Shown piece by piece: positions 27,701 through 62,283 of a DNA stretch of 64,000 nucleotides. The first letter of the stretch is position 1; every line of letters starts with the position of its first letter. The translations under genes and the position numbers were made by a program. Source of the DNA: Peribolospora baueri (taxonomy: Eukaryota); the NCBI GenBank assembly GCA_029717555.1, contig JAMDHS010000037.1, forward strand, positions 124,001 through 188,000, read 5' to 3'. The notes under the pieces were generated by a model, which was not told where the DNA came from, searched no databases, and worked only from the letters and a program-made list of their open reading frames with translations.

Positions 27701-30539
27701 TCGTAGGAGATCGATCTGGGAAGGGGCAGGAGGAAAAGAGCGCTGCGGCCGCCTTGCAGAAGATGGATTCGAGCACGTCCTTGGGCAAGAGGAAAGTTGG
27801 CGGTGTGGCCACGCCCCCAAGGGCGAGCGTGCCTCTGCCAAAGGAGACTTCCGCGGAGCCCTCCAAGTCGTCCGGCGCTGAGGAAACCGCAAGCCAGATC
27901 AGAGCCAAGGCAGATACTCGTCCGTCTCCTCCAAAACCCATTTCGATTCAAACAGACGCCGGTGGCCGAGGGCGTTCTGACTCTGCTTACCGAAACAGGG
28001 CGGCTGGAAGTTTTGAGGATGAAGCGAAGCAGGAGACGGGCAAGTCGCCGGTGCAGAGGCAGCAGAAGGTCAACAAGCAAATGCTTATCAACCCATCTAA
28101 TCCGAGCAAAAATTTGGCGCCGCTTAACCCAAGTCAGACGCGGCGCTGGCAACACCTCTTCCCAAGACCAGTGAATCGTCACACCGTCAAGTGGAAGAGC
28201 ATGTGCACACCAGCTTGCCTGCCTCTTACTACAGATTACTTCCCTTCACCGGACGAGCTTCGCAAGTTGTGGCAGGAGTATCCTTTCACAGTCACCATCT
28301 CGTCCGACACGACGAGTGTCTTACTCAAGCCGCCGGACGGTAAGACGCCGAGGGCAAAGGCCTTCATGCGGGAGATGGTCTCGCAGCGTCTCGCACAGGG
28401 CTTCCAGTTCATTGTCTCTCCGGAGGGACTCGTCCACCTCTCTGAGGATGCGCGCAAGACGACCTTCGCCACTGGTGCGCAGGCTCTCGAGGAAGGTAAA
28501 CTGGCTGCCTTGCGTCCCGCCTCAGAAACGCTCAATTCGGAAAGCCGCGTCGTGGGCGTGCCGATCTACCTCAGCATGAGCAATCACATTCACCGCCTCT
28601 CTTATGATCCCGTCGCCCAGACTGTGGAGGTGAAGCGATACGTTCGCCGGATCGGCTATTCTACTGAACCGGTCGACTATTCTTGCATGATTTGGTCTCG
28701 GCATGCCCCCGGCTATCACCCCGTCCAGACGCGCTTTTCGTACCCCAATGTCGGCGCTTACAACTGGAATTATCTCGACTCGCTCATCTCCGGCTTCGAG
28801 GAGGAGCTGACGGATTCGCTGCGGTACTGGCGTACGCGGTTCATCCTCATACCGTCCGAGGTACCGCCAAACCCCATGAAAGCTCCCACGGGCGAGCCTC
28901 TGAGCGACGAAGAGATTCGGCTCTTGGGAACCGACAAGCTGGCAGAGCTGTTTGCAAAGGCTCGTTGGCTTAGGCCAGGGGAGAGGCCAGAGCGCTTTGG
29001 TCCGCCGCGTTTCTTCAACACGTCATTGGACCCTTCGACCTGCCTCGGGGACGAGAACCTTATTAAGAGCATGGCGGAGGCCAAGAACTATGTTCCCGCC
29101 GGCGCGCCTAACAAAGTGTTGAAGGGCTCGACGCTGGCGCAAATTGCGAAGGAGATGAGATCGGAGAGGACAGGCGTCAGGATCAACGACAGGCTGTGGC
29201 ATCGGATCCTGTACGCTGACACGTTCATTGGCTTTGACTTCGTCACTTGGCTCTGTCGGACGTACCGCGACGTCAGGACGAGAGAGGACGCGGTGGAGTG
29301 GGGCATCAAGCTTCAGAAAGACGGTCTTTTCGAGCACGTCAACAAGGTGCACGGCTTTCTCGACGGCCACTACTTTTACCGGCTCAAGGGAGAGTACGCG
29401 CTTCCTCGAGCCAGCAAGAGCTGGTTCGGCAGCACGAAAAAAGGTTCGGATGCCGCGAAAGGCTCCGATGCCACGAGCGACTCGTCTGACGCCGAAGACG
29501 ATGCCGGCCGCGCAGACATGTCTGACGCAGTGGCGCTGGATGGGGATAAGGTACAGGGCAAGTCAGACGCAAAGGCGGGTGGGGCAGAAACTCGCCGCAG
29601 TGGGGCTAAGAGCAAACCAGTCCGAAAAGCCAAGCTGGAGATGAGCAAGTCCATCATTATCGACGTCGACCCGGCGCGGAAGAGCGACCGGGCGGAAATC
29701 GCCTTCCTCCACCACGATTTGGCTCATAATCCTGCCAACAGCTTGAGCTTCCAAATCCACTGGCTGGGCACGACAACGAGGTTTATCGAGGACATGCTTC
29801 AAGGTTGGAGTCGGACTATCGAGAAGTACGGCTTAAGGCTCGTCGAGGCGCCCGTGGAACAGGTCAAGGACATTCCGAAGCATAACCCTTTCCAGTCAAC
29901 AATCCCCATCCCCTTGGCCTTCCCTCCACCGCCGGAGAGCGAGTACGAGTCGCGCCTGCCGGAAAAGGTACAGGCGAAAGAGTATCTCGAATACGCACTC
30001 TTGCGCAAATTCAATTTTGTCCTGGACTCGGAGGCGGCGGACAGATTCCCAAAAAACGTGCAGATCGTGTATTCTTCCCGACGTGGTGAGCCATCGTCTC
30101 CCATTTGATTTCTTGATGGCTGCCCCAGTGCCATCGCGACCGCATATTGATATATATTGACCCTTGTTCGCCTTCGGCAGAACACTTTGACCACACCCAA
30201 TTTATTCATCGCTCTGGCGTCGCCTTCGTCCAGGTGATCGGCGGCTCGGAAGGCTTCATCTGGTTGCCTAACCGTCTTTTCACCTCACGTCATTGGCGGG
30301 GCGCACCGGACCCCGACGCGCTGCGGAAGGAGCTCGAGGCCTTTTGTTCGAACAAAGAGGCTCTGGAGAGGTTCTGGAAGGAGACCATTGACGCGCTCCC
30401 CACGCCGCTGAGCACGCCCTCTCTTCCCGCCTCCTCTTCCGGATCAGCGACGACGCCCGCAGCGGCCCTCGCCGTCGATTCGCCGGACGTCTCGAACGGC
30501 GGCGCGGGAAGGCAGGCCGATGTGAATGCCATCGCCTAG
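24708..30539 (+). CDS. IML1: Vacuolar membrane-associated protein Iml1 / DEPDC5 (SEACIT/GATOR1 subunit; spliced)
   Basis: [90 protein letters not shown] domain ([22 protein letters not shown]...[10 protein letters not shown]), and [12 protein letters not shown]. Confidence 0.96.
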
Positions 30540-40998: not shown

Positions 40999-43959
40999 AT
41001 GGTCAAGCGAGGAGGCTACAGGAACAGCGTGGACAGAGAGGCCGCTAGGGCCGCCGCCGTCGCCGCCGCCGCCGCCGTGGAGGAGGCGGAGGAGGAGCGC
41101 GAGGAGCAGGAGGAGGAAGCCGAGGTCGGCCAGGTGGAGGCCGACGCCGACGCCAGCGGCTCGACGAGCGGTACCGAGGAGGGGCAAGAGGTCGAGTATA
41201 CCGTCAAGGACAGACAGGATGTGAGTACCCCGTTACCCCTCCTCCCACTCGCCTTGCCTAGCCCATTCACTCACCCGCCACGTATTCGCGCCCGCTCCCC
41301 CCTCGCAACCGCAGGCCATCAACATCGAGCACCCCTTCGGCCTGCCCATCTGGAAGCCTGCGCTGTACAAAAAGTCTCGCTCGGTGACGCGCAACGCAGA
41401 GTCGGCCCTGCATTCCATCCCCTCCGCTGCCGCCGAACGACACCTCCTCCCGGGCAACCTGCTCTGGACGCTCCTCTTCGGCTGGTGGCTTGCCCTCCTC
41501 ACCTTCGTCGTCTCCGCCCTCCTCTCCGCCGTTCCCGACGGCGGAAGCCGAGCCGCCCATCTCGTCTTTGGTCTCGGCTGGTACCTCTTCTGGCCCTTCG
41601 GCAAGTACGTAGAGAAGGAGCTCTCCGAGGAGGACGCGGCGCGTCGGCTCGAGCGAGAGGAAGGACGCGACGCCGGAGCTCATGACGACGCGAGTGCGCC
41701 TTGGACGCCAGGCACGGCTCGATGGTCCTCGGACGTCAGCGAGACGCTGGACGAGACGGAGGAGGAGGACGAGGAGGAGGAGGAGGGCGGCCTTGGGCGC
41801 GTCCGCACCCTTCGTCCCGGAGACATCCCCGGCGCGCACGCCGCCGCCGCCGAGCGTCCCACGTCCTCCGCTTCGGCTGCGCGTCAGCAGCGCTCCGACA
41901 GGGCGGAGGGTGGGAGCGGTCTCCCTCTTGGGGGAGAACGGGCGCCGCTTCTGTCGCACCTTGGCAAGGGGAGGCCGAGGGTGGAGAATGGATATGGGGC
42001 CATGAACGCTCCCGGCTCGGAGGATGGCGGTCTCGGGAGGGAAGGCGAGGATGGAAGCGTTCACATCGGCCTTGGCGGTCGCATCGCCTTCTTCCTCGTC
42101 TTCTGGCTCATCCTCGCTCCGGCGATGGGCATCGTCTGCCTCCTCTGCTGGGGAGGCGTTTTCACCATCCCAATGGCCAAGCTCAACTGGGTCCTTCTCA
42201 AGCACCTCGCCAAGGACCCTTTCTTGCTCCACTTCCGCGCCGCGCCCAGGGCTCCTGAGACCTCCGCGGAGGACGGTGGTGGCAAGCAGCACCGCTTCCT
42301 CCGTCTTCGCCCCGGTCAGCTCGCGCCGAGAATGCGCACGTCCAGCTTCATGTCCACTCCCGGGAAGGGCCGCCACCGGCAGAGCACCATCCTCCTCTGT
42401 ACGTATCGCGCCGTGGGACTGCAGTACTACAAATACACCGTGGGAGGCGTCAACATTCTCTTTGTCGATCTGCTGCCCATCATCTTTTTCGTCATCTTCG
42501 ACGCCTTCGTCCTCGAGCCCTACGTCCACCGACACCACTCTGGCGGCCTTCTCAAGGCGATCACCTCCCAGGCCGTCATCTTTGTCCTGGCGCTCGCGAG
42601 CGTGATCCCACTGAGCTACTTTATCGGCATGGCCGTCGCAAGCATCAGCGCGCAGAGCAGCATCGGCATGGGCGCGGTGATCAACGCGACGTTCGGAAGC
42701 GTCATCGAGGTCATCCTCTACGGCATCGCGCTCAAGCAGGGCAAGGGACGTCTCGTCGAGGGGTCCATCGTCGGCAGCTTGCTCGCTGGCGTCTTGCTCA
42801 TGCCCGGCTTGAGCATGGTCTCCGGCGCGACGAGGAGGAAGGAGCAGAGGTTCAATGCCAAGAGCGCGGGCGTGACGAGCACCATGCTCATCATGGCCAT
42901 CGTCGGCATCCTCACTCCCACCTTGTTCTACCAGATCTACGGGACGGTGAGCGCTCGTGGAATGGCTTAGCCACCTTGGCCGACTAGTCGCTAGTCGGGT
43001 TCATTTGAACAGAGCCAGACTCAACTTCATTCTGACACGTTCGCCTTTTCCTGTCCACTCGGACATTCGCACGCACGCACGCAGTTCCAATTGACCTGCC
43101 AAGGCTGTCCCACCGAAGTGCCTCCGTCGCCAACGAGCGCGTGGACGTGCAAGCGATGCTTCTACGAGCATGTCAACCCAGCCACGGACCCTTTCTACCA
43201 GAAGGACGTCAAAGGGCTTATGTACTTTTGTGCCGTCATTCTCGTCCTCGTGAGCGAAGCATGGCGCGCGCCTCCAGTTTCGCTGAGATGGCCTCGCCAG
43301 GTGCTCATGCGACGTTCGTTTTTCGTTCCCCCCCCCCCCCACCCTCCTCCTTCCCCGCAGTCATATCTCGTCGGCCTTTGGTTCTCTCTGCGCACGCACG
43401 CCTCCCAGATCTGGCAGTCTCCGCAGCCCATGACGGCGCACGACGTGACGGGAGGCGCCCAGCAAAACTTGCCTGCCGCTCAGCGAGCGAGCATCTACAA
43501 GCGTCTTCTTCCCACCAACGTGGTGAACCAACTCTTGCCCACGCACAGACACTCTGCTTCCGGCACCGGCCTCACTCCCACCTCCGCCGGGAACGTCACC
43601 CAGCCACTGCCTAGCGCCGCGCCCGCAGGCACGCCGCAGCAACAGCCGAGCGCGGGCGGCCAGGGCGGAGGGACGACGACCTCGTCCGGCGGCGGGCGTC
43701 CGCCAAGCCTACAGCTTCCGGAAAACGTATCGGCCGAAGACTTCCACCGCGTCGTCGCTCTCACCGCCAGCGCCTTCCGCTCCGTCCTCCAACAACACCA
43801 CCACCAGGCTCCCGGAAGCGCCGCCGTTCGAGCGAGCTTGCACGAGCACGAAGAAGAGGCTCACGGAGGTCATGATGCGCCTAGTTGGAGTAGGATTACC
43901 AGCGCAAGCGTTCTTTTGGCCTGCACGTTTCTCTATGCCGTCATTGCTGGTGAGCGTCC

Positions 43960-45504: not shown

Positions 45505-47196
45505 TCACGCTTCCATGTCCCTCCGGAACGATGATGATGGATCATTCGGCCCGCGCCCACCGTCACCGTCGGCCCACAACCCCGCTCTCACGCCCTCCCA
45601 ACCAGGGGCCACCCCTAGCCCCTCACCAGGCCCATGCCGACACCTCTCCTCCGCCTCGTCGAGTTCCTTCGACCGCTCAGGATAGCCGTACCACTTGGCC
45701 GAAGAACCGGGCCACCAGGGAGGCATGCAGCCTTGGAAGTGGGATTGGAGTTGGAGCATTGCCTTGTCGTATGCGTTTGCAGGCGATGGTGGAAGGAGGT
45801 CTACCGGTCCATCGCGCGACTGATCTTCGCTGCCCTTGCTCCCCGGGGGAGGGCGACCGTGGGACGGGGTCGGGATAGAGGCCTTCGGAAGCGGGACGGG
45901 GATGGCAGAGGCGGAGGTGGAGGCGGGAACGGCCGCGAAGAAAGGAAGGGCATGGACGCCGGTGTTGTTCCCCGGCGCGTCAGGGACGAGCTCGACACCG
46001 AGTCCGGCGCCTACGTGTCTCAACAAGCTGTACGCCCTCTGTCGTCGTCGCTCCCTGTCCAAAAGGACGCATTCCGGTCGCCTCTTCGCGCCTGTCAGGC
46101 CGTACCACGACGCGTCCGTGCCGCGCCACCAGGTCGGGACGCAGAGGTCAGGGCCAGGTCCCCGTTCTGGTCTTTGATGGAAACGAGTGGTCGACGGCGA
46201 AGCGGACGCGGCGGCGGTTGATATGGATGAAGAAGGCGTGACCATCTGGCTCGAGCAGGCGACGGCGAGACAGGTGGTCGCGCGGCCGCTGGCCGAGTCG
46301 GGCTTGTCCGGTGGCGTGCTGGGCCGCTTGAGGACGGTGGTACCGTCGAGCACGCCGGGCCCGTCTAGAGGACCGAGCGAGTCGCGTTGCAAATGTGAAT
46401 CTCTGCCGAGGACGGTCAAGTGCTTCCTCAGCGCGTTCTTCTTGCCCTTCCACGCCTTGCTCCATAAAGCGCTTTGCGGGCGATATCGGTGTCGGACGGG
46501 CTTCTCCTTGCGCTGTTGACCAATCGACACTCCCGCATAGGGTGTCTCGGCGTCAGCGAGACATTTGGCCTTCCGCCTTTGCCCATCATCTGTCGGGCCG
46601 TACCAGCTATCCTCGGAGCCTCCCCACCAGCTCGGTTTGCACCCTCCCCATGTGAGGTCAAAGCGCGCGGGTATGAGCGGCGACGGCGAAGGCGGCATGG
46701 TTTCCGGCTCCTCTTTGGGCGGGTCCCATAGCCAGGCGGGCGGCTTGTGATACGGCAGACGGGGCGGGCGGGGAAAGGGGCTTTCGTGGGCCGCGTGCCA
46801 GGGCCGATTACCCGTCTCGCACCACGGAAGGACGTGCTCACTGCCGTACCACGACTCCGCCGGGCCGTCCCACCACTCCGGCTGACAGCCGTTGGTCTTG
46901 AGGCGGAGCTCGAGCGCCGAGAGGTCTTGTCCGTCACTGTGGTGATCGATGCGATGTGGTTGAAAGGCGTCTTGCTCCGACGAAAGCGAGCGCAGAGAGA
47001 TGGGAGGACGAGGTTTGACTTGGGCGCGCTCGTCGGGGCGACGGACGATGAGGGCGTTGTGGACGGGATGAATGCGGATGGCGCTGGTTCGGTGGCGAAA
47101 GGGGCGAAAGTCGCTCGCGTTCGCGTCCAGAAGCGGAACGGCCAGCCCGGCAGAGGTGGCGAAGACGGTGAGAAAGACGACTGTCGCAAGTTTCAT
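45505..47196 (-). CDS. Secreted protein (~563 aa) with four Cys/Trp-rich CxPxWWxGx4WYG modules; family not recognised
   Basis: Signal peptide MKLATVVFLTVFATSAGLA at ATG 47196; uninterrupted ORF; four protein-level repeats; probable 5'UTR intron acceptor just upstream; TATA-like element at ~47413. Confidence 0.85.
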   Translation of the reverse strand: MKLATVVFLTVFATSAGLAVPLLDANASDFRPFRHRTSAIRIHPVHNALIVRRPDERAQVKPRPPISLRSLSSEQDAFQPHRIDHHSDGQDLSALELRLKTNGCQPEWWDGPAESWYGSEHVLPWCETGNRPWHAAHESPFPRPPRLPYHKPPAWLWDPPKEEPETMPPSPSPLIPARFDLTWGGCKPSWWGGSEDSWYGPTDDGQRRKAKCLADAETPYAGVSIGQQRKEKPVRHRYRPQSALWSKAWKGKKNALRKHLTVLGRDSHLQRDSLGPLDGPGVLDGTTVLKRPSTPPDKPDSASGRATTCLAVACSSQMVTPSSSISTAAASASPSTTRFHQRPERGPGPDLCVPTWWRGTDASWYGLTGAKRRPECVLLDRERRRQRAYSLLRHVGAGLGVELVPDAPGNNTGVHALPFFAAVPASTSASAIPVPLPKASIPTPSHGRPPPGSKGSEDQSRDGPVDLLPPSPANAYDKAMLQLQSHFQGCMPPWWPGSSAKWYGYPERSKELDEAEERCRHGPGEGLGVAPGWEGVRAGLWADGDGGRGPNDPSSSFRRDMEA

Positions 47197-47412
47197 CTCG
47201 ACCTGCGAGAGAGAGAAAAAGAGAGAGAGGGTGAGAACGTGAAAAAGAGACGGCACAGCCGTGAAGCGCCAGGCTTTGATGGATGAGAAGAAAGAGAGAC
47301 GGAAAGGCCAGCCTGCCGTCGAAGGAAGAGAAAAAAGGAAGTGAGCGGGGACAGGAAGGAGGTGGGGGTCGGGGAGAACGAAGACGACATGGGTCCGAGC
47401 ACGCTGCCTGCG

Positions 47413-47420
47413 TATATATA
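47413..47420 (-). promoter_or_regulatory. TATA-like element upstream of the secreted WW-repeat gene
   Basis: TATATATA in a GC-rich context, ~220 bp upstream of the ATG, followed by a pyrimidine-rich leader on the minus strand. Confidence 0.55.
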
Positions 47421-48308
47421 CCCCTCGCTGGGCTCTAACCTACGCCCGCCACCGTCGACAGCTTCAACAGACGAGAACAGACTAGCCTGGCGCGCATCCT
47501 TGCGACACGACGCACGCGACGCGACGCGATGCGACGCGACGCGACTCTGCGGAAGCGTGCGATTTGTGCGACGATGACGACGAGCGACCGTCACCTCCAT
47601 AAGACTTCGGATAGAGCAAAAAGGGTTTCCAGTTCCATTCCATTGGACCCCGCTCTCTTTCCCCGAGTGCCCGAGTCGGCGTGTGGGACCAGTGAGAATC
47701 GGTCGCATAGAGTAGACGGCCGCGGGCGAAGCGAGACCAAATACTATGACCAAGGGGGGAGGGGAAGATGTAGACGCGGGTCAGGCGACTCGCGAGTGTA
47801 ATCTTCGAGAAACGGACGGGAAGAACGGTACACCGTTTGCTAACCCAGGTGACTATAGTCCGGCGTGTACGTATGAACGAGGAGGGTGAGGTATCGCAAG
47901 AGGGATGTTGGGAGCGGATTGAAGACCAAGATAAGGCCGTATAGAAGGGGTGATTCGACTAGGGAGAAGTGTACATTGTCAACATTACGAGGGAGAAAAA
48001 ACGAGCGACAGAGAGGAGAGAAAAGTGTCCGTGTGCAGGGCGTATGCTCGCATCCGTGGGTATGACGTGGGGCGAGTGAGAAGAGCGAGCGTTGACGGGT
48101 ATCGGAGACGGAGAAAGCTTTGGAAAAGGGGAGGGATCGGCGACAGGGTGTAGGTCCGAGCGGTGTCGGCCGTCGAAAGCAGAGAAGAAAGACGAGAGGC
48201 GGCGCAAACTCCCACCTGCCCAGTCGGTCCACCTCTGTGCCATCTTGTCCCTTTCTCCCCCACTCCATCTCAGCCCACCTCACCTGACACTGACAGACAG
48301 ACGCGGGT

Positions 48309-50216
48309 CTAGGACCTTCGGGACGCCGGGAACGCCGGGGACGAGGGCAAAGCGTCGTACATCGCTTCGCCACTCATTTTCGGGCCTTCCTTCCTCGGTG
48401 CTGGAGCCGCCGATCGGGCACCTGTCCGTCGAAATTCTGAGCTTTTGGCGGTGGTGGAGAGAGTAGGGGGCGGGACGGCAAGGAAATTGCCTCCACCGTA
48501 GCTGGTGTTCTGTGGGCGGCCCGCATATCCTCGACCGGGCGCAGAAGAAGGGGGAGGAGCATGAGGAGAAGCAGGAGAGTGTGGAGGAGCAGGAGAATGA
48601 GGAGAAGCAGAAGAGTGGGGAGGAGCAGGAGAACGAGGAGAAGCAGGAGAGTGGGGAGGGGCAGGAGAACGAGGAGAAGCAGAAGAGTGGGGAGGGGCAG
48701 GAGAACGAGGAGAAGAAGAAGAAGGAGAAGCGGGGAAGGGAGCCAAAGCTCGTTGGCTTCTCCGCTGCTCCGTCCTCTCCCCATTTCCGAGCGCCATCGC
48801 CAACCCGCCCGCCGTTCCAGTCCCACTCCTGCTCCCATTCACGCCGCCCTTGCCTGCGCCCGCTCCGACATGGCCATCCGAGCCGCCTCTCGAAAGCGCG
48901 GAAGAGGCCTTGGAGACGGTCCGGAGCGGACTGGGGCGGACTGGCTTGGAGGTGGAAGGGGGGGAGGAGGAGGCGGGGGAGGGGGTGGTGCTGGGGTTGG
49001 GAAGGGCTGGGGAGGTGGAGGACGGAGGAAATGACGATTGCTGCCGCTGCTGCTGTTGCAAAGGGGGCTGCGAAAGGAAAGTCGGTGGCATCGACGGCGG
49101 GGGAGCCAAGTGCCGGTTGGTCGGGGCTGCGAACGGGAGGTGGTAACCCGGGTTCAGCGAGGGGTAATTGTGTCCCATCGGAGCGGGCAGCGGGTTGGGC
49201 GTCGGGTACGGATTGAACGGCGCTTGTCCCCAGCTCTGTCCTTGTTCTCGTCCCTGTTCGTGTCCCAGTTGATTATCACGCCCACGCCCACCTCCACGTT
49301 CACGTCCTCTTGTTGATTCTCCATACTGGTCGGATGGGGAAGGGGCCAGAAGGCTGGAAGATGAATGGGGCGCGGACGCGGCTGCGGGCGAGGACGATCC
49401 CGGATGCGGCATCTCCCATCCAGCCCAGTTGCTCCCCGCGCTGAAAAAGTTGGCACGCCCCGGCGAATGCCGGTCGCCATGGGTTGAGGCTTCTGCGGCA
49501 CCTCCAGTGAAAGGCAGTGGATTGTCAACCCTGCTCGGCCGCCTGGCGAAGGATGGGTGCTGCCACGGCTCGTGCACATGCTCCGATCTGTGTGGCGACG
49601 TCAACGTCGGCCGAAGTTGAGCGGAGAAACGAGAAGCGGAAGGAGTACGGGGAGAGTGCTGGGATCGAGGGAGGGTAGGTAGCCCGAGCGCGGGCGGCAT
49701 TGAGGAGCTTCTGATTTCGCCGTGGCGATGGCCGTCCTCGTCACCAGAGAAGGAAGGCCTGTTCTTCTTCTGTAAGAGCTTCTTTCCAATGCTGAAGGAG
49801 CTTCTCAAAGATGCCTCAACCGCCCGGCGGCCGCGGTCCGGTTGGTCGACGGCTCTGCGCTTGCCCTTGCCGGCTTTGCGCTTGGTCATCTCGAGCTCGG
49901 CTTGCTGCTGCCCGTACCAATCCAGATACACGCCTTGGCCATGTGCACGTCCTCCTGCGCGTCCGCCGGCACTGGTGCCGGACCGTCGTCGGTCATAGAC
50001 AAGCTTCAGCCTCCAGGCGAGGAAGACGACAATGGCCACGAGAACGAGGGAGCCGGCGGAAAGGCCGATGACAGCGCCGACGGAAAGAGAAGAGCGGGTT
50101 GGAGACGCGGTAGGGGTAGGGGAAGAAGGAGATGCCGCAGAGGTCGGCGTAGAAGCGTCGGACGAGGTTATGTCCGCAGGGTCTTGACGAGCGACGAGGG
50201 CGAAGGGAGCAGGCAT
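48309..50216 (-). CDS. Single-pass membrane protein with short S/T-rich ectodomain and long Pro/Ser-rich cytoplasmic tail
   Basis: MPAPFALVARQD, an S/T/P tract, the TM segment VGAVIGLSAGSLVLVAIVVFLAW followed by basic RLK..RRR, then ~570 aa of low complexity. Single long ORF. Confidence 0.75.
   Translation of the reverse strand: MPAPFALVARQDPADITSSDASTPTSAASPSSPTPTASPTRSSLSVGAVIGLSAGSLVLVAIVVFLAWRLKLVYDRRRSGTSAGGRAGGRAHGQGVYLDWYGQQQAELEMTKRKAGKGKRRAVDQPDRGRRAVEASLRSSFSIGKKLLQKKNRPSFSGDEDGHRHGEIRSSSMPPALGLPTLPRSQHSPRTPSASRFSAQLRPTLTSPHRSEHVHEPWQHPSFARRPSRVDNPLPFTGGAAEASTHGDRHSPGRANFFSAGSNWAGWEMPHPGSSSPAAASAPHSSSSLLAPSPSDQYGESTRGRERGGGRGRDNQLGHEQGREQGQSWGQAPFNPYPTPNPLPAPMGHNYPSLNPGYHLPFAAPTNRHLAPPPSMPPTFLSQPPLQQQQRQQSSFPPSSTSPALPNPSTTPSPASSSPPSTSKPVRPSPLRTVSKASSALSRGGSDGHVGAGAGKGGVNGSRSGTGTAGGLAMALGNGERTEQRRSQRALAPFPASPSSSSPRSPAPPHSSASPRSPAPPHSPASPRSPAPPHSSASPHSPAPPHSPASPHAPPPSSAPGRGYAGRPQNTSYGGGNFLAVPPPTLSTTAKSSEFRRTGARSAAPAPRKEGPKMSGEAMYDALPSSPAFPASRRS
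48558..48716 (-). repeat. 36-bp coding tandem repeat (~4.5 copies; SPRSPAPPHS[SP]A)
   Basis: GAGGAGAAGCAG(A/G)AGAGTG(G/T)GGAG(GA/GG)GCAGGAGAA(T/C) units are seen directly. Confidence 0.9.
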
Positions 50217-50665: not shown

Positions 50666-50719
50666 GGTGGTGGTGGTGGTGGCGGTGGTGGTGGCGGTGG
50701 TGGTGGCGGTGGTGGTGGT
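50666..50719. repeat. (GGT)n microsatellite with periodic GGC interruptions
   Basis: Directly visible, in the divergent intergenic region. Confidence 0.9.
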
Positions 50720-51190
50720 CGTTGCCTTCGTTGTCGCCGGCGACGCTTCGACCGACCCCGGCGAGCGACCGAACAGCGGGAGCGGCGGCCGATGACTTGA
50801 TAGCGAGATCACCACAGCCAAGCCGCAGCCTCCTTAGCCGCGCCGTCGTCCCCGATCGGGGCTGCGGCAGCGCGCGGGGAAACCGACACCTGGTTCCTGC
50901 GTGCGCTTGCGGCGATCGGCAATCTTCACGGCAGTGCCGCAGCAGCGTCTGCACGTGGCGCTATCGCACGAGAACGACCCAGAGCCTTCCATCCGGCCGT
51001 AAAATGGAGCCGGACCGGGCGGAGGCGGAGGGGTACGATAAGACCGGAGGGTCCGGGACGGATAAGGACTTTGGCTCGCACGACCATCATCCATACTACC
51101 ACCACCACCATCTTCAGCCGGCTCTCAGCCCAGCCCCTTGACCTCTCCCACTTTCACTTTCCCTCGCGCGGTCCGCCTGCAGCCTTCGGC

Positions 51191-52307
51191 ATGGACTCCC
51201 AACGCCACCGCTCTGATTCTTCTCCCAATCCACCCAATTCACCTCGCACCTCTGGAGACGACGACGGTTCGGGCCAGAGCTCGCCACCGCCACCACCTGT
51301 CGCCGCACCTCAGTCCTCATCTCCGGCACCAGCGCCATCTTCCTCCTCGGGGGCGCAGTCGCCCGACGGCCCCAGCTCCACTACTTCGAGCGCCCAGCCG
51401 CCTGGCGTCGTCGTCTTCACTTGGCCCGTCTATCACGTGCTCCCTCCTGGCACGCCGACGCCGCTGCCCTCGAGCCAACCTGCTCCTGTCAACGCTGGCA
51501 CGAACGTATTGGATGCTGTCGCGGCACCCACCGCTTCCCCCGCAACAGCCGGCGTCGCCGACGCCCCCGCTGATGATCCGCCCGAGCAGCTTCCCGATCC
51601 AGCTCGTTCCTCCATCGTAGCCGGGCACGGGCAGGACTCGCAGGAACAACAAGGTCCTGACAGCGGTCCTGGTCAGCGTACTTCCACAGAAAGCCGTCCT
51701 TCCTTCAGCCCGTGGGCTGCGGTGATGAACATGTGGGCGAACGCAGCCGGCGCCTTCATTCAGCGCACGCCCGATCAGCCTGGTCCCACAGCCACATCTG
51801 GTGGTGCCCAGCCTTCTTCACCTGAACAGGCCTTCCAACCGTCTTCCGGAGATGCCACTGCGCCTGCACTAAGGAGCATTCAGACGAACCCCGCGACAGG
51901 CGTCTCTTGGGTCTTTCGCGCGCCTACCGTAGCTTCGCCTCAGACGCCCGGCACTGCGCCGCATCCTTCCGATGACGCAGCTCAGCTACCCCAAGCGACA
52001 ACAACACCGACGGGTGCCCCGGCCGGAGCTTCCGGAGCTCCAACTGGCGACCAGCAACCGCCAGCGTGGTTGCAACCCGGAGTTCCGGTGATCATCTTTG
52101 ACACACCTCATGGCCGCGCCATTGCGCCCCTCTTCGGCAGCGGCGGGGTGTTTCAAATGGGCCCTCCGCCGCCGCCGCCTCCGCAGCCCAACCCAGAGCT
52201 CACGAAGCGCTACGTGGCCAACCTGGAGCGCGCGGACGCGGAGATTCGGGCCCGCATGCGCAGGGTCGGCATGGGCTCGGAGGGGTGCGGCGTGTGCTTG
52301 AACGAGT

Positions 52308-52340
<33 letters not shown>

Positions 52341-53095
52341 TCGGTATCGTCGCCTTGCCCAGATGTCACCACCTCCTCCACGCCTCCTGCTTGGCCTCCT
52401 GGCTCGACACCCTCGCGCCCTCCAACTGGTCGTGCCCTTACTGCCGCGATGACCTCTCGCCTCCCGCGCCGGCCCCTTCGCGCCCTTCCACGGCCGCTGG
52501 AGGACGAGGTGGGGCAGACGCGAGCGCCGACGCGGGCGACTTGCCGACGCCCTCATCTTCGTCTCTAGGCAAGCGCAAGTCCCGTCCCGACGCTCGCGGG
52601 TCTCTGAGCCTGCACGAGGAGGTGCGGAGCAGGGAGCGTAAGGCGCATATCATCTGCGACGACCCGACGTGCGAGTCCTGTCCACTCCCCTCCGCCGCCG
52701 ACCTGCCCGTCGACCCGTCCACGGGCATTCCCAGGGCACCCCGGCCGCGCACGCTGACGCTCTCCCCATGCGCCCACTCGCTCCACCCCGACTGTCTCCT
52801 CACGAGCCTCCGCGTCTCCGGCTACGGCGACATGGTCACCGAGGCGGTGGAGGAGCACCGGCAAGCGCTCCTCAGCAGGGAGCGCCTCACTATGGATAAG
52901 GTGCGGAACCACGTCGCGCTGCGCTGCCCTGCATGCAGGAAGGAGTGCTTTGTCGCGAGGGAAGAGTTTGCAACGGCTATGCGCGAGGCCATGTGTACGC
53001 CTGAGGAGGAGGGGGACGGGGTGGGAGCGGCGCCGGCGACAACGACAGCGACAGCGACGGCTGCGACGGCGGAGGAGATGCGCACGGGACAATAA
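51191..53095 (+). CDS. RING-finger protein (putative E3 ubiquitin ligase) with two RING-like domains; intronless
   Basis: RING-H2: CGVC...PRCHHLLHASC...WL...CPYCR. Second RING-like unit: CDDPTCESC...PCAHSLHPDC...CPACR. Disordered Pro/Ser-rich N-terminus. Confidence 0.85.
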
Positions 53096-54744: not shown

Positions 54745-57242
54745 TCAAATCAACCCCCGCAGATCGGCCTGCCAGATCTCCTCCCAGCTCATGTACTCCT
54801 CTCCCTGCCCCACCGTCTCGTCCACCTTCCTTCCCTTCTCCTCACCCGGCTGCAGCAGGACGCTCTTGTGCCACAGCGGCCTGAGCAGCGTGTCCACGAC
54901 GTGCACCGCCCCGTTCCTTGCGATCCAGTCGCGCACCAGCGTCCTCACGCCGCGACCGCGACCGTGGTCATGGCTGTGAGAGTGGCCGTGATGAGCGTTC
55001 AGCTCGAGCGCGAAGAACCGAAGTCCACGGCCTCTCTTCCACGGGAACTTTGGACGAAGGACGAGCTGGTCGACGAGGATCGTCTGAAACTTCTGCGCCT
55101 TTTGGTCGACCGTGTCGAGGGAAGAGCGACCCTCGAGGAGGGTGGAGAGGTTGTGGCTCGTTCGGTTCACAACCTCCAGCAGCGGAGGCCAGTGGTATGA
55201 GAGTCGACGCCTTGGGCGGCCGCCGCGGCCGCGGCCGGGGCGGGGTGCTCGTGGCGGGCCGCGGGGAGGACGCGGTGCGGGAGGAAGGCGACGAGGACGC
55301 CGTCGGCCGGGGAGGGGGGAGGAAGGGATGTCTTGAAGAATTATGGAGTCGTCCTGGTCGTCTTTACCCTTCGCCGCTACCGCAGCATCAACGTGGTGAA
55401 GGTAATCCGTAAAGACAATGTCAGAGGGCACGACGTGGTACTGAAGGATCTTTTTCAGCAGGCGCTCTCCCTTCGGGCTGAATAGGTAGGCGCGGAAGCC
55501 GGGTGGGAGGCGGGAGAAGGCCCTGTTCGTGGGGGCGAACAGGGTGAGCGCGCCGGACCCCTTGTCCTTGCCCTCCGTCGCGTTAGGATCCCATTTAACG
55601 GCCTTGTCGAGGCCGGTCTTGTAGAGCGCGGTCGTGAGGACGGAGAAGAAACGGGGGTGGAAGAGGAGCTGTTGGAGGACGGAGGGAGGAGGGATGAGCG
55701 GGTGGGTGATGCCGTGGATGATGCCGTTAGAGCAGTGCACATTCGTGAGGTGGCTGAAGGGGGGCACCGTCTTCGAATGGAAGTTGAGGCGGAGGCCGGG
55801 GAAGGGAAACTGCGGACACAAATGGACGAACATGGGAGAGACGAAGCGACGAGAATCCAAAGTCACCGAGCTGTCCGTGCGTCACAGTAGAGGTAGAAAG
55901 CGCGAGTCATCACTGCGACACTCACCAGACTCTTGCTCACCCTCACCCTGAGTGGCTGGCCATCCCAAACTCCACCAAGCGGCTCCAGGTCGCCGCGGAG
56001 GAGGGTGTCGACGGTGGCGTTGTTCGCGATCTCGCGCGTCGTCAGGGGCTCGGAGAGCAGGTGGTAGGACAGAACGGCGTTGAAGAGGACCGCCTTCCTC
56101 TCGTCACTATCATGGGATTCTGACGTGACCGGGTCAGAGGCGAACAAGTATTCGAGGGACTCCCATCCGTCGTCCTCCTTGACGTGCTCACAGCCGTGGC
56201 TACGAGCAGGAGGATCCTGAGGACCCCTTCCGGGAGGAGAAGGGGAAGACCACCAGCCCAGGGACCCCCTGCCCGGAGGCGGTGGGGGTGGCGGCGCACG
56301 CGCAAGCTCACGTCCAGGTGGGGCCCTGCGTCCGGGTCCCCGACGGCGACAACGATGGGGGCGGTGGTCGACGGGAGCGAACAAGGTCAAGTTGGCCTTA
56401 GTATCGTTGAGGCTCTTGACGAGGTCGAGGTCAGAAGCGAAGGAGGCGTTGAGGAGGTGGAAGAGGCGAGTAAAGTGGGGTGAGGCAGCGAGGAAGTCTA
56501 GGATGGTTTGGTTGGTCGTCTGTGCGCGGGCGGAAGGAGAGGGCGATCAGCGAGGAGAGCTGAGGAGACGGCTATGAACAGACACACTCACCATCTCTTC
56601 CGGCTTGTGACGATGGTCGGGGAAGCGATCGATTTCGTCCTGATCTTCCTGAACGGTGAAGTCGCCCTCTTGTTCATCAAGCACGTCGTCGTCGACGACA
56701 TCGAAGCTGGCATTCATGTCTCCTTCGTGCTCGTCCACTTCTTCTTCCTGCTCCCCTTCTGTCTCCACTACATCTCCCATCTCCTCCTCCTCCTCCTTCA
56801 TGTCGACGACATCATCGTCCTCACCGCCGACGAGGTCGTCATAATCGACGTCAAGATGCTCGCCAACTGGGAGAATCCACACATCGTCCGCCTCGCCTTC
56901 TGTCTTGCCCTCCTCTTCCTCCTTCGACGCTGCCACTTGGCTCGACAACTGCGCCCTCTCGCCGTCGTCTCCGGCTTGGCTGTGAGACCATCCAAATACG
57001 TGCTCCGTCAGCTCCTCCCACACCTCCTCGGCGAGGCTCGCGGCGACCTCGAGCACGGGCTGGCCGGTGAGGTGAAAGGCGTGTTGGCGGTCGTGAGCGG
57101 CGGAGGTAGGATCGTCGCGGGGAGCAGGCTGATGCTGGGGGGAGGAGAAGAGGCGATCGATGGAGAAGGAGGTGGGGGCGGAGACGACGGAAGGGAGGAG
57201 GGGAACGAAGGCGAGGGCGAGGGAGAGGGCGAGGTGGCGCAT
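54745..57242 (-). CDS. Secreted fasciclin (two FAS1 domains; spliced)
   Basis: Signal peptide MRHLALSLALAFVPLLPSVVSA. FAS1 motifs NLTLFAPVD...VLSYHLL...SNGIIHGITHPLIPP and LTLFAPTNRAF...ILQYHVVP...ARNGAVHVVDTLL. TATAAA on the minus strand at ~57416-57421. Confidence 0.9.
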
Positions 57243-58240
57243 GGTCGGCTGGCTGGACAGCAGCCTGAAGGGTGAAGAGAGTCGAGATGGGTTGTCTTTC
57301 CTTGTCTTGTCTGTCTCCCTCCCGGTCTTGCTCGGTCGGTCGACCTGCAAAGGGAACCTGGCTGGAGGGAAGAGGGGGTGGAGGGAGGAAAGGGAAGGTT
57401 AGGGGCGAAGGGAGGTTTATATCGTCGTCGATGCTTCGCCTCGCTGCGCGGAAGGAAGAGGCACACAAGGTGAGTCGAGGCCGGAAAGCGCAGTCAGCGA
57501 CGAGCGATGAACGACGCAAATGGAGTTAGTCAGTGGGCAGACCCATCGGTCCCCCTTTGCAGCGTACGCATCGCATCGCATCAAGAACAGTTAGGACCAT
57601 CGACAAAGGAAAAAGAAACCGGGTCCTCGATCGTCCCGCCGCTGTCATCATCCGTCGTCACCCTCGTCTCACCACCGGCCGAGAAGACGGCGGCCACGAC
57701 GACGACGACGACGAAGACGATTCGACGACGAAGACGACACAACACGACGACACCACTTCTTGCTCTTATCGCCCTTTCGCCCCCTCTTCTCCCCGCCGCT
57801 CGTCCCCGTCCCGCCAGCCGCGCCCTCTTGCCACGGCCCCCTCCTCGCCGTCGTCGCTCTGCGCAGTCGTCGTTCCGCGCAGACTGATTAAGCCAACTCG
57901 CGACTGCGCACACGAGCACTGCGGACGTTGCTCACGTAAGCCGTCGCTGCGAGTCACGTGCTGAATGGCGATCGGGGTCCGAGGGCCACCACTACGCTCG
58001 TGTCATGCTCGTGCTCGTGCTTTGAGTCGATATGATATCGTATCGTATCCCCACCGCCGTCGTCCACTCCATCATTCCTCCTGTTCGCTCTCGCACTTCC
58101 TTCTCCTCTTCCCTCTTCAATTCATCTCGATCTTTCTCACTTTCTCTTTCTTCAGCCTCGCGTGCGGTTTTTCGACCCCACCACACCAAACCTCCCCCCT
58201 CCTCGCCCACCGCCTCCCGCACCCTAACCCCTGACCCACC

Positions 58241-61200
58241 ATGTCCGCCTTCTTCCCCCGCTCCTCCGTTTACTCCATCTTCCAGGATGACCATGCCGCG
58301 CTCGCCTCAGCCGCCGCCGCCGATGAGGCTTTAGACCTCGACGCGTCCGACGATCCTCACAGCCCCCGCCGTCCCACCGGCTCTGCGATCGTCGATGACG
58401 ATGATTACGACCTCGAGGTGGGACGAAAAGGAACGGCGACCGCTTCGAGAGACATGAGTAACCGGAGGTGGAGATCTCCGCCGGCCTCCACCTCATCTCC
58501 TTCCTTTCCTTCCTCCTCCACCACCCCCGCCAGGCCTTTACTTGGTCTGCTCAACCCCGCCGGCAGGGCTTTTGCCCAGAGAAGGGCCAACTGGATGGGC
58601 TACGAGAGCTTGGCGGGCGTGGAGGAGGGCAACGCGGAGGGGGCGGAGGAGGAGGGCGAAGAGGAGCGCCGGCGGACAGGCAAGGAGGTGGAGGACGAAG
58701 AGGAGCGCCGGCGGACAGGCAAGGAGGTGGAGGACGACGACGACGACGATGATGACGACGCTTCGCCCCCTGCCAGCATCATGCTCGAGACGGGCGGCGC
58801 TAGCTCCAGCCGTCGTCCACGATGGTTGTCCAAACACGGCCTCAACATCACCACGAGCCCCACTTCTGTCCCTCCAGCCGCTGCTGGTCCAAGTACGGAT
58901 GCCGCCGTGGACGACCCGTTCAACTCCCCCCTCGAAACGGGAGACCAAACGCCTCGCTCTCGGACGCCTTCCTCGTCCGACGGGCGCCGCTCTTCCTTTG
59001 CCCTCAGCACGAACTCGGCGGCGGTAGAGACAGCTGTCAAGGGCACGACCGCCTCAAAATCGCAGAAGCCCTCCTCTCCCGACAAGGCGAGGAGGACGTC
59101 TGAACCAACCTCCGCCGGCTCCAGACCGGTCGAGTCCATTCAGCTCTCTCGCACCGGTGCTGCCCGTTCCCGTTCCTTCTCCTCTTCGGCTCGGCCATCT
59201 CATCATCCGCGGTCTCAGTCCCGCTTCAGCTCGACGTCCGGCGACGGTGATCAAAATGGTGACGCCGATAGCTACGGCTACGGTTATCGGGACGCCGGAC
59301 CTTCGTCCCGGCTTGGAGGCATGTCGGGCTTGGACGAGAGGGAAAAGGCGCTGTGGAAGTGGGTGAACGTGGAAGATCTGGATAGCTTCTTGCAAGAGGT
59401 TCGTCCTCTTCTCTTTCTTTCTTTTCCCGCTCCATACTCGTCACTCGAACGCGCCAAGTTTTATTTTTCTCACCGTCCCCCTCTTTCACACACACAGGCG
59501 TACGCGTACTACGTCGGTAAAGGCCTAGTCTGCATCGTCCTCTCCCGCGTCCTTAACCTCTTCACTGTTGCCTTCGTCATCGGCTTCACCACCTTCCTTC
59601 TCGGCTGCGTCGATTACTCGCGCATCCGACACGACGGAAACTTGCACGAAGTCGTCGTGCCTCACTGCGTTTCGAGGTGGGTCGGGATGAGACGGATCGT
59701 TGCTTCGGTGTTGTGTCGGAAAAGCTCACATCATCCATTCTTCCACCCTCCCATCGTAGGTTCTCCGGCCTCACCCTCTTTCTCCTCTTCCTCTTCTCTG
59801 CCATGTTCGGCTGGCAGGTCGTCCGCTTCGGCTTCGGACTCCGCCGATTAATCGACATGTATCGCTTTTACACTCACCTGTTGAACATTCCTGACGTGAG
59901 CGCGAGCCCCTTTGTTCTTTCGCTCTGTCTCGTGCGGTCGCTGATGGATGCCTCGTCGCTCCTCCTCACCGCACCACAGGCGGACATTCAAACCATCTCT
60001 TGGTCCGACGTTGTGACTCGCATCTCTCTCATCCGCTCCCAGAACCCCTCCACCGCCTTCTCCTCTTCCCGGCCGGGCGGCCACGGGCCCCGGGAGATGG
60101 ACGCGCACGACATCGCGAACCGGATCATGAGGCAGGAGAACTACCTGATTGCCCTCTTCAACAAGGACCTCCTCAACCTCACCGTACCCTTTCCCGGCCT
60201 AAGAAATCTCAGCCCCGTCCTGACGCGCACGCTCGAGTGGAACCTGAGTTTTTGCCTCCTTGGCTACCTCTTCGATCGGAGAGGGAGGGTGAGGAGGGCG
60301 TTCGTGAGCTCGAGGCATCGCGCCGACTTGATCGAGGGGTGAGCGGGTCCGCGTCGTGTCCAACGCTCCTTTCATCGTTCCTCGCACGTCCGTCTGATGG
60401 CTCGCTCATTCGCTTTGTCTTCCCTTTCGTCCCTTTTACCGCAACTCGCCGACAGTCTCCGACGAAGATTCATCTTCATGGGCGTCCTCAACGCTATTTT
60501 TGCACCCTTCATCGTCCTCTACCTTCTCATGTATTCCTTCTTCCGCTACTTCGAGGTGCGTCCGCCCTTTTTGCTTTCTCTTCTCGTTCTCGCTCCCCTG
60601 ACCTGTACTTGCCCGGCCGCGGCCGCACCAGGAGTACCACAAGAACCCGTCGACGATCGGCTCGCGACAGTACACCCAGTTCGCTCGCTGGAAGTTCCGC
60701 GAGTTTAACGAGCTGCCCCATCTCTTCCAGAAGCGCCTCGCATCGAGCTACCCGCTGGCAAACGCTTATATCAACCAATTTCCCAAGGAAAGGGTCGCGC
60801 TGCTTTCTCGGTGAGTTGGGCGCGAACGGAGTCCATTATTTTCGATTCGGTCCTCATGTCTGTCCCTCTCTCTCTATCCCTCCCGCCAGCTTCGTCGCCT
60901 TCGTCGCCGGCTCTTTCGCCGCCGTCCTCCTCCTCGCCTCCGTCCTCGATCCAGATCTCTTCCTCCACTTTGAGATCACGTCACAACGGACGGTACTCTT
61001 CTACATCGGCCTTTTCGGCACCGTCGTCGCCGTCGCTCGGTCCATGATCCCGGACGAGAATCAGGTGTTCGAGCCAGAGGTGCTTCTCAGGGCCGTCGTC
61101 GAGCACACGCACTACTTGCCGGACTCGTGGAAGGGCAAGATGCATTCCGCCGAGGTGCGTCTCGGCCGTCTGTCCGTCCGTGGGTTCGGCCACTCACTCA

Positions 61201-62283
61201 CCCACCCTACACCCTCTTCGTTCTACAGGTCCACGCAGCCTTCGGCTCCCTCTTCACGCTCAAAGTCCTCATCTTCATCCAAGAACTTCTCTCCGTCCTC
61301 TTCACCCCTTTCGTCCTCTTCTCCAGCCTGCCCAAGTGCGCGCCTGCGTTGATCGACTTTTTCAGAGAGTTTACCGTTCATGTCGAGGGCGTTGGCTATG
61401 TGTGCAGCTTTGCCGTGTTTGACTTTAAGAGGCATGGTAACGTCCGGGTGAGTGTCGAGTCGAGCGTACGAGCCCAGATGGAGGCCTTTTTGGGCGGACG
61501 CTGAGCGTGCCGCGTTTACGTCCACGTCCGCGCGTCCCGCAGTTCGGAGCCCCGACAGAAGTGACCGATGCGCGGCTCATGTCGAAGGAAGGAAAGATGG
61601 AAAAGAGCTTCATCGGCTTCAAGGCGAGTACTCGCTTCTCATCCCCGTCTTTCTTCCTTACAAACGAAGCATCGGTCCGGTGTGACTGACTGACCGACTG
61701 ACTGATTGACTGGATGGACGGCACACAGGCAAATCACCCTGACTGGGTACCACAAGATCCGTCCAGTTCTCTCTATCTCTCCCGCCTCACCGAGCTCGGA
61801 GTCGCCGATCCGTCCCACCACCTTCGCCCAGCCACCGGCCTCACATCGCCCCTCGCCGGCCGTCTGCACGGCTACCACCCGTCCGCCTTGGCCACCGCCA
61901 CCGCCACCGCGAACCGCTTCCGATCTCCACCTGTCGACACGGGTGCGGGCGCGCCGCCGCCGCCGACGACGACGACGACGACGACGGTGGACGACGCGCA
62001 CACGAGCGGGAGAGGTCGTCATCGTCATCGCGCCGGCGCTGGCACAGGCGCAAGGAAGGACACGACTGGCGAGGGGGAGGATGGACCGGAGGAAGGGCTG
62101 GCAGGTGTATACGACGATATGGGGTTAGAAAGAGACGACGAAAGCCAAGGTGCTGGAAAGCGAAAGGGCGACGACGACGGTGAGGCAGCGGGCGTCCTAG
62201 GACTCTTAGGCCAGATATATCGTGGCGCAAGCGGGCCGGCGGGTGCGGCGGGTGCGGCGGCTGGCACGAGGACGGGGTGGTGA
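58241..62283 (+). CDS. ATG9: Autophagy-related protein 9 (lipid scramblase; spliced)
   Basis: [114 protein letters not shown]-terminal [10 protein letters not shown]. Confidence 0.97.

Follow-up and report, generated by a model that had tools for sequence, protein, structure and literature searches.

Introduction

Carbohydrate-binding modules of the hevein type (CBM18) and of family CBM1 are small, 30–40 residues long and held together by disulfides; they bind chitin or cellulose via three aromatic side chains exposed at their surface and often occur in several copies on flexible Ser/Thr/Pro linkers. The closest analogue of the protein described here is BAD-1 of the ascomycete Blastomyces, a mostly non-globular fungal extracellular protein with many short disulfide-closed loops; each loop carries three conserved Trp residues, and the copies multivalently bind heparin/heparan sulfate and anchor to the yeast surface (PMC3708853). 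In this study, we analysed a stretch of 64,000 nucleotides of contig JAMDHS010000037.1 from Peribolospora baueri (positions 124,001 to 188,000; in the following called the window), in which an open reading frame (ORF) of 563 codons on the reverse strand encodes a presumably secreted protein with four copies of an aromatic motif.

In smut-like fungi, domainless lineage-specific secreted proteins are the rule and not the exception, and orphan secreted proteins with private repeats are common. Rsp3-like smut effector candidates are likewise secreted, repeat-bearing, rapidly evolving and domainless proteins of a narrow Ustilaginomycotina clade; Rsp3 itself is an acidic tandem array, whereas the protein studied here carries a dispersed Trp/Cys motif and has no sequence relation to it. 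A further class of repeat-bearing secreted proteins are the Kex2-processed repeat proteins (KEPs), in which, by definition, a signal peptide is followed by internally repeated units that are separated from each other by Kex2 sites (PMC6339444).

The present locus resembles these systems in anatomy, not in sequence. BAD-1 is described as having 41 head-to-tail tandem repeats with WxxWxxW in a 17-residue loop (PMC3708853), while the protein of the window has four dispersed copies of C-x-P-x-W-W-x-G-x4-W-Y-G in loops of 21–28 residues, belongs to a Ustilaginomycotina basidiomycete and shows no sequence similarity to BAD-1; neither WxxWxxW in a 17-residue loop nor a tandem array is present in it. 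As our tentatively favoured reading, to which we give somewhat less than an even chance, the gene would encode a lineage-restricted, disordered, basic secreted protein, the four aromatic disulfide loops of which act as multivalent glycan or cell-wall binders.

Results and Discussion

Four modules under protein-level constraint

The strict pattern C.P.WW.G....WYG, sought by regular expression in all six frames of the whole 64 kb, was matched exactly four times, each time in the frame of the ORF. The four cores lie inside the coordinates of the four modules which the original prediction had placed in a 563-residue ORF (Table 1). The back-translated DNA pattern also gave four matches, compared with a mean of 0.00 in 100 dinucleotide-preserving shuffles, and none of 20,000 shuffles of the protein contained the motif. 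An independent repeat search returned one four-copy family of 46 nt, the copies of which were 63–74% identical to its reference copy and separated by spacings of 414, 498 and 246 nt; no extended DNA repeat was found around the copies.

Among the copies, 28–32 of the 45 nt and 8–9 of the 15 amino acids of the core are identical. Eight residues of the core never vary (C, P, W, W, G, W, Y, G), and their codons have only synonymous changes at the third position (TGT/TGC, CCG/CCT, GGC/GGT), whereas the seven variable codons of the core differ freely, including their first and second positions. Also, for a semi-conserved Ser preceding WYG, two copies use TCG and one uses AGC. This variation is phased by codon, and therefore selection has acted on the peptide, which is what the original prediction had proposed in place of recent slippage, and not on a repeat at the DNA level. 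Thus, the four modules are under protein-level constraint.

The cores start 82, 166 and 138 residues apart, and the linkers between the modules (59, 139 and 113 residues) are mutually unrelated. Of the 21 Trp residues of the protein, 12 sit in the 60 core residues. The x4 residues of the cores are polar or acidic (PAES, SEDS, TDAS, SSAK). Ahead of three of the modules, hydrophobic residues alternate along a stretch that runs up to Gly-Cys (LELRLKTNG-C, FDLTWGG-C and LQLQSHFQG-C). The unit comprises about 23–30 residues, and it may reach about 32–39 residues if the preceding hydrophobic-alternating strand belongs to it.

Cysteine pairing and overall character of the protein

The protein contains ten Cys residues, and these are present in close pairs only: one pair in each module (104/126, 186/212, 352/376 and 490/519), enclosing 21, 25, 23 and 28 residues, respectively, and the pair of the CLAVAC sequence (309/314). 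When the six non-core Cys residues were placed randomly in 200,000 trials, each of the four cores was followed by a Cys at a distance of no more than 15 residues with p = 3e-4, which agrees with the earlier proposal that a second Cys closes each module.

At the N-terminus, residues 5–23 reach a Kyte-Doolittle value of 2.0 and form the sole 19-residue window of the protein above 1.6. Among the 62 ORFs of the window which start with ATG and have at least 150 codons, N-terminal hydrophobicity of the studied ORF ranks second, after a gene for a fasciclin-domain protein, which is a typical secreted protein. The first in-frame ATG leads straight into this signal-peptide-like segment, and the residues read at positions −3 and −1 of the presumed cleavage site, G and A, are small. 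The clear signal peptide claimed originally thus stands as a signal-peptide-like segment, as judged solely by such heuristics. The C-terminus is hydrophilic and there is no other hydrophobic window, so that no sign of a membrane span or of a glycosylphosphatidylinositol (GPI) signal was seen. For the mature protein, a mass of ~60 kDa, an isoelectric point of 9.0 and two N-glycosylation sequons are predicted. A prediction of the whole protein from the single sequence by AlphaFold2 (AF2) gave a mean predicted local distance difference test (pLDDT) value of 39.2, with 505 of the 563 residues below 50; such values are in keeping with a mostly disordered chain, though they are no proof of it.

Table 1. 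Features of the studied locus, with positions in the window and residue numbers of the encoded protein
Feature	Position	Strand	Residues	Basis	Remarks
ORF, intronless, 563 codons + stop	45505..47196	(-)		translation; codon-position GC; intron scan	
Signal-peptide-like N-terminus, MKLATVVFLTVFATSAGLA followed by VP	47140..47196	(-)	1-19	hydrophobicity heuristics	presumed cleavage site
Module 1, CQPEWWDGPAESWYGSEHVLPWC	46819..46887, core 46843-46887	(-)	104-126	six-frame scan, codon comparison, Cys permutation	
Module 2, CKPSWWGGSEDSWYGPTDDGQRRKAKC	46561..46641, core 46597-46641	(-)	186-212		RR at 207 within loop
Ser/Thr/Pro-rich stretch around Cys pair CLAVAC (C309, C314)	46186..46320	(-)	293-337	translation	candidate O-glycosylation
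Module 3, CVPTWWRGTDASWYGLTGAKRRPEC	46069..46143, core 46099-46143	(-)	352-376		KRR 371-373 within loop; RRR 383-385 just beyond
Module 4, CMPPWWPGSSAKWYGYPERSKELDEAEERC	45640..45729, core 45685-45729	(-)	490-519		contains letters PWWP
Pyrimidine-rich (CT) tract between TATA-like box and ATG	47200..47395	(-)			contains (TC)n at 47207-47229
TATA-box-like TATATATA	47413..47420	(-)			217-224 nt upstream of ATG; presumed promoter role

Support for the gene model

The GC content at the three codon positions of the ORF is 0.65/0.58/0.73, and the same order, GC3>GC1>GC2, was found for eight Pfam-supported ORFs of the window (0.62/0.52/0.68). With a codon log-likelihood of 0.089, the frame of the ORF is the best of the six, the others having values of −0.02 or less. 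Upstream of the ATG, a TATA-like box and a CT tract are located on the coding strand. TATATAWA occurs at only two sites in the 64-kb window (expected 0.12), and none of 100 shuffles reached four strand-matches. CT tracts are typically carried by fungal core promoters and 5′ untranslated regions; the tract found here (196 nt) consists of 78% pyrimidines on the coding strand, a share by which it ranks among the highest 0.6% of 6381 equally long windows, and a GA/TC dinucleotide run within it was reported by Tandem Repeats Finder (TRF). Candidates for an intron with GT..AG borders and a branch motif were sought inside the ORF, and zero were found. Between the neighbouring ORFs lies a 4.2-kb interval, which is empty apart from the studied ORF.

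These data have to be weighed against the assumption that no functional coding gene exists as modelled, the ORF having arisen by chance in GC-rich sequence, the gene being young or in decay, or the model being wrong in part. Long spurious ORFs are frequent here: of the 34 stop-to-stop ORFs with at least 250 aa in the window, several lie opposite real genes. The codon score of the studied ORF is modest, being exceeded by that of an antisense ORF, and neither homologues nor an AF2 structure nor a high value in the ESM Atlas (1102, see below) were obtained. The antisense ORF in question, with 577 aa and free of stops, lies opposite a YccF/Na_Ca_ex gene (41267-43000 (-) versus 41225-42970 (+)) and has a codon score of 0.16, which is above that of many real genes. 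Neither the length of an ORF nor a simple codon score can therefore be relied on in a genome this rich in GC, and the codon log-likelihood was kept as weak support only, since an antisense ORF outscores the studied one. Against a spurious ORF, four codon-phased copies with eight invariant residues in one frame cannot be chance, the Cys residues are only present in pairs, the first ATG opens onto the signal-peptide-like segment, and the TATA box and the CT tract are found on the right strand; moreover, no + strand ORF of the window covers all four motif sites. Because the signal-peptide-like N-terminus, the TATA box with CT tract and the sense-type GC3 pattern support it, the predicted gene is very probably real, and we consider its absence quite unlikely.

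About 90 nt upstream of the TATA-like box, a microsatellite, (GCGAC)x9, is located at 47502-47545.

Search for relatives and known domains

The whole protein matched 0 Pfam families at E up to 10, and the four modules taken singly matched only one unrelated family, with one module of the four and an E value of 0.026. In a word-indexed search of 5.8 billion clusters, 8000 candidates of near length were scored and none reached E <= 0.001; an exhaustive phmmer search of 1,835,955,588 representative proteins gave 0 matches. A profile of the four modules, built from 45-residue segments, was compared with longer proteins (547 candidates, none with E <= 10). In the Protein Data Bank (PDB), nothing was found by phmmer at E <= 10, and the four matches of the profile search (E 0.87-8.5) were dismissed as noise. 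The ESM Atlas held no usable match, either for the whole protein or for residues 95–220, and its 'recognition' value was 1102, compared with a value of 2300 reached by 91 of 100 proteins of known families. In the passages returned by full-text literature searches the motif is not described, and 'WWxG' occurs there only within an OATP transporter signature.

Two collections were also scanned with the degenerate DNA pattern. In prokaryote genomes (596 Gb), two single matches in stop-broken frames were dismissed as chance. JGI metagenome contigs gave six single-copy matches, which were dismissed in the same way; four of them have a stop in the motif or at most 10 codons upstream. The remaining two lie in bacterial ORFs that are homologous to each other, and for one of these a GH95 glycosidase catalytic domain was demonstrated. 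These two related GH95 glycosidase ORFs (contigs L002:1132-3486 (+) and L006) each contain a single CGPDWW(T/C)GYSYSWYG, in which the fungal motif is matched at each of its eight invariant positions; we take this as coincidence. The match numbers of the pattern scans agree with chance for ~20 specified bases, and no locus had more than one copy.

The mini-domain hence remained without a recognised counterpart in Pfam, the PDB, the Atlas and the sequence databases, as the original prediction had stated. The term family used there is premature, since a single protein with four copies is known.

How much this absence tells depends on the distance to the sequenced relatives. For a large exon of the neighbouring Iml1/DEPDC5 gene (26281-30108), 22 proteins were found at E <= 1e-20, the best of which are merely 41-44% identical; these come from Violaceomyces palustris, Thecaphora frezii, Pseudozyma flocculosa and Ustilago trichophora, all Ustilaginomycotina, and there was no 100% self-match. 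Judging from this comparison, the organism is a Ustilaginomycotina basidiomycete without close relative in the protein collections searched, and its own proteome is absent there. With a conserved neighbour gene at 41-44% identity, the absence of relatives is therefore weak evidence, and a fast-evolving disordered secreted protein would escape detection across such a distance.

Another notion is that the modules are extremely diverged copies of a described small domain, i.e. hevein/CBM18, CBM1, PWWP, WW domain or choline-binding repeats. The aromatic-Gly-x4-aromatic spacing recalls chitin-binding hevein-type cores, and module 4 spells PWWP, both being loose resemblances at the motif level only. 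Yet the whole protein matched no Pfam family at E up to 10, the single modules matched only the unrelated family mentioned above, and none of these domains appeared in the PDB profile and phmmer searches at E up to 10. Neither the Chitin_bind_1 profile of hevein/CBM18 nor its Cys number is found in the modules, and neither is the CBM_1 profile with its four conserved Cys; each module has two Cys residues, compared with four in CBM1 and six to eight in hevein-type domains, i.e. one putative disulfide instead of two to four. Likewise, the profile of the ~100-residue beta-barrel PWWP domain does not match, and P-W-W-P is present in module 4 only. We regard such a descent as highly improbable.

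A multivalent aromatic-loop binder as favoured reading

The ORF, the motif, its conservation in phase with the codons, the pairing of the Cys residues and the lack of detectable relatives are observations, and we infer secretion, disulfide formation, a loop structure and, as the weakest step, the class of ligand. The Pro/Ser/Thr-rich protein would be secreted without membrane anchor or GPI signal, and in each module a disulfide from the first Cys to the second Cys 22–29 residues on would close a loop. The closed loop, with its turns at the conserved Pro and Gly residues, may display W-W and W-Y, so that the aromatic side chains could form a sugar-stacking face, with the flexible basic linkers serving as spacers. 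Four such loops would give avidity for a polymeric ligand at a cell surface, which might be a polysaccharide of the own wall, of a host or of a substrate. The multivalent surface or effector protein named as one alternative in the original prediction is compatible with all observations and thus plausible, at the strength of a proposal drawn from sequence. The likeness to BAD-1 or to carbohydrate-binding modules is of the kind 'works like' and not 'is a', as membership in these families fails on profile matches and Cys number.

Several observations weigh against this reading. The residues between the aromatic ones are unconserved, and known small carbohydrate-binding modules have two to four disulfides per module, compared with one putative disulfide here. 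A homologue is absent from all protein, PDB, Atlas, metagenome and prokaryote collections searched. The linkers are dominated by residues which GC-rich non-coding DNA would encode too (P 69, A 52, S 52, G 49 and R 47 of 563 residues), and the ORF opposite a Pfam-supported gene exceeds the studied ORF in codon score (0.16 versus 0.089). Also, structure prediction gave no confident module fold. With module 1 as query and the other three modules as alignment (four rows), AF2 reached a mean pLDDT of 60, and 76 only over residues 11–20; in the model, a hairpin seems to precede the first Cys, and AESWY seems to form a short helix. Foldseek found 0 matches of this model in the PDB at E <= 10, and VIA-align found none with Z >= 2 among 48,161 chains, so no conclusion on a fold is drawn.

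The same anatomy would be expected of a secreted effector or surface protein in which the loops serve as linear recognition motifs for a protein partner, or as Trp-rich loops active at membranes and interfaces; one docking or insertion motif would then be offered four times by the disordered chain. Disordered proteins with dispersed short conserved motifs typically act through motif-partner contacts. In addition, a WxG hairpin of the PPE family and a viral fusion peptide, both encountered in the PDB profile search at a non-significant E of ~1, share a W-x-G turn, and therefore such motifs can form compact hairpins at interfaces. Nevertheless, these matches (12 bits, E 0.87-1.1) are at chance level, and the polar or acidic x4 residues are unlike those of membrane-inserting peptides; hence we rate this explanation as unlikely. 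The viral sequence, the influenza HA2 fusion peptide, has the exact spacing W-x-G-x4-W-Y-G (12 bits, E ~1, non-significant).

Going beyond multivalent glycan or cell-wall binding as such, the modules could be the founding examples of a new single-disulfide aromatic mini-domain of ~35 residues, CBM- or adhesin-like, which would be confined to an unsampled branch of the Ustilaginomycotina and lend a disordered secreted protein multivalent affinity for a polysaccharide of the wall or of a host, a proposal we put forward as rather doubtful. Should the loops prove to fold and to bind a ligand as a unit, the fungal surface-binding domains would gain a very small aromatic module with just one disulfide. 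It would also offer a handle on an unstudied Ustilaginomycotina lineage, the conserved proteins of which are ~40% identical to those of sequenced relatives. The case concerns one orphan gene in one genome, and no long-standing question is opened or settled by it; its value is that of a well-defined and cheap target, consisting of four short peptides which can be synthesised.

Peptide-precursor question and gene neighbourhood

The original prediction had offered, as its other alternative, a precursor from which Kex2 cuts at dibasic sites release four disulfide-looped Trp-rich peptides, similar to a KEP or to the precursor of a ribosomally synthesised and post-translationally modified peptide (RiPP). 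The signal-peptide-like N-terminus and the four motif repeats are in line with it, and the basic doublets noted at that time are indeed present, with KR/RR sites at 52, 207, 290, 371-372, 383-384 and 558. Furthermore, KEPs are widespread among fungi including Basidiomycota, and for instance Ustilago maydis Rep1 shares with the studied protein a signal-peptide-like start, a repeated internal motif, dibasic sites and the fungal origin (PMC6339444).

The layout of the sites speaks against such processing. No KR/RR is present between core 1 (104-118) and core 2 (186-200), so that not every pair of repeats is separated by a site, and after core 4 none follows until residue 558. In modules 2 and 3, the sites at 207 and 371-372 come after WYG but ahead of the closing Cys, and therefore cleavage would open these loops and not release them. 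KEPs consist of near-identical whole repeat units with a Kex2 site between each (PMC6339444), whereas here the repeat is limited to a 15-residue core and the sites are irregular. KEPs have at least three near-identical internal units; the studied protein has four cores with 8–9 of 15 residues identical, and its flanks and linkers of 59–139 residues are unrepeated and unrelated.

The neighbourhood was covered by a Pfam scan of 41 translated ORFs from across the window, including 24 that lie near the gene at 35-58 kb. These translations showed neither a UstYa/DUF3328 nor a tyrosinase, P450, methyltransferase or prolyl-oligopeptidase family, and thus held no tailoring-enzyme gene of the kind that stands beside the precursor gene of ustiloxin-type (dikaritin) RiPPs. 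Neighbours named by Pfam were of ordinary housekeeping kinds, namely DEP/DEPDC5, RING, YccF/Na_Ca_ex, ATG9, fasciclin, PHM7, DNA pol B, Mito_carr and Tsr1, besides a sub-threshold FAD motif. The precursor idea is therefore weakened by modules that are not bracketed by Kex2 sites, by sites inside the loops and by the lack of a RiPP enzyme gene nearby; we disfavour it and consider it very unlikely.

Among the genes close to that of the proposed multivalent binder, the upstream neighbour on the same strand (48309-50216 (-)) is a Ser/Pro-rich ORF of 635 aa with one hydrophobic span near the N-terminus (VGAVIGLSAGSLVLVAIVVFLAW) and without Pfam match. Within it, a 36-nt tandem repeat is located at 48555-48722, with 4.7 copies, 93% matches and units of the type SPRSPAPPHS. 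The fasciclin-domain gene (54745-57242 (-)) begins with a signal-peptide-like start, MRHLALSLALAFVPLLPSVVSA, at 57242 and occupies two or more separate ORFs (54745-55881 and 55863-56546), by which introns are implied. ATG9 (58235-61352 (+)) likewise changes frame between its two ORFs (58235-59851 and 59895-61352), and therefore the organism has introns, though the studied ORF shows none. A further microsatellite, (GGT)x18, is present at 50666-50719, just upstream of the RING-finger ORF at 50804-53095.

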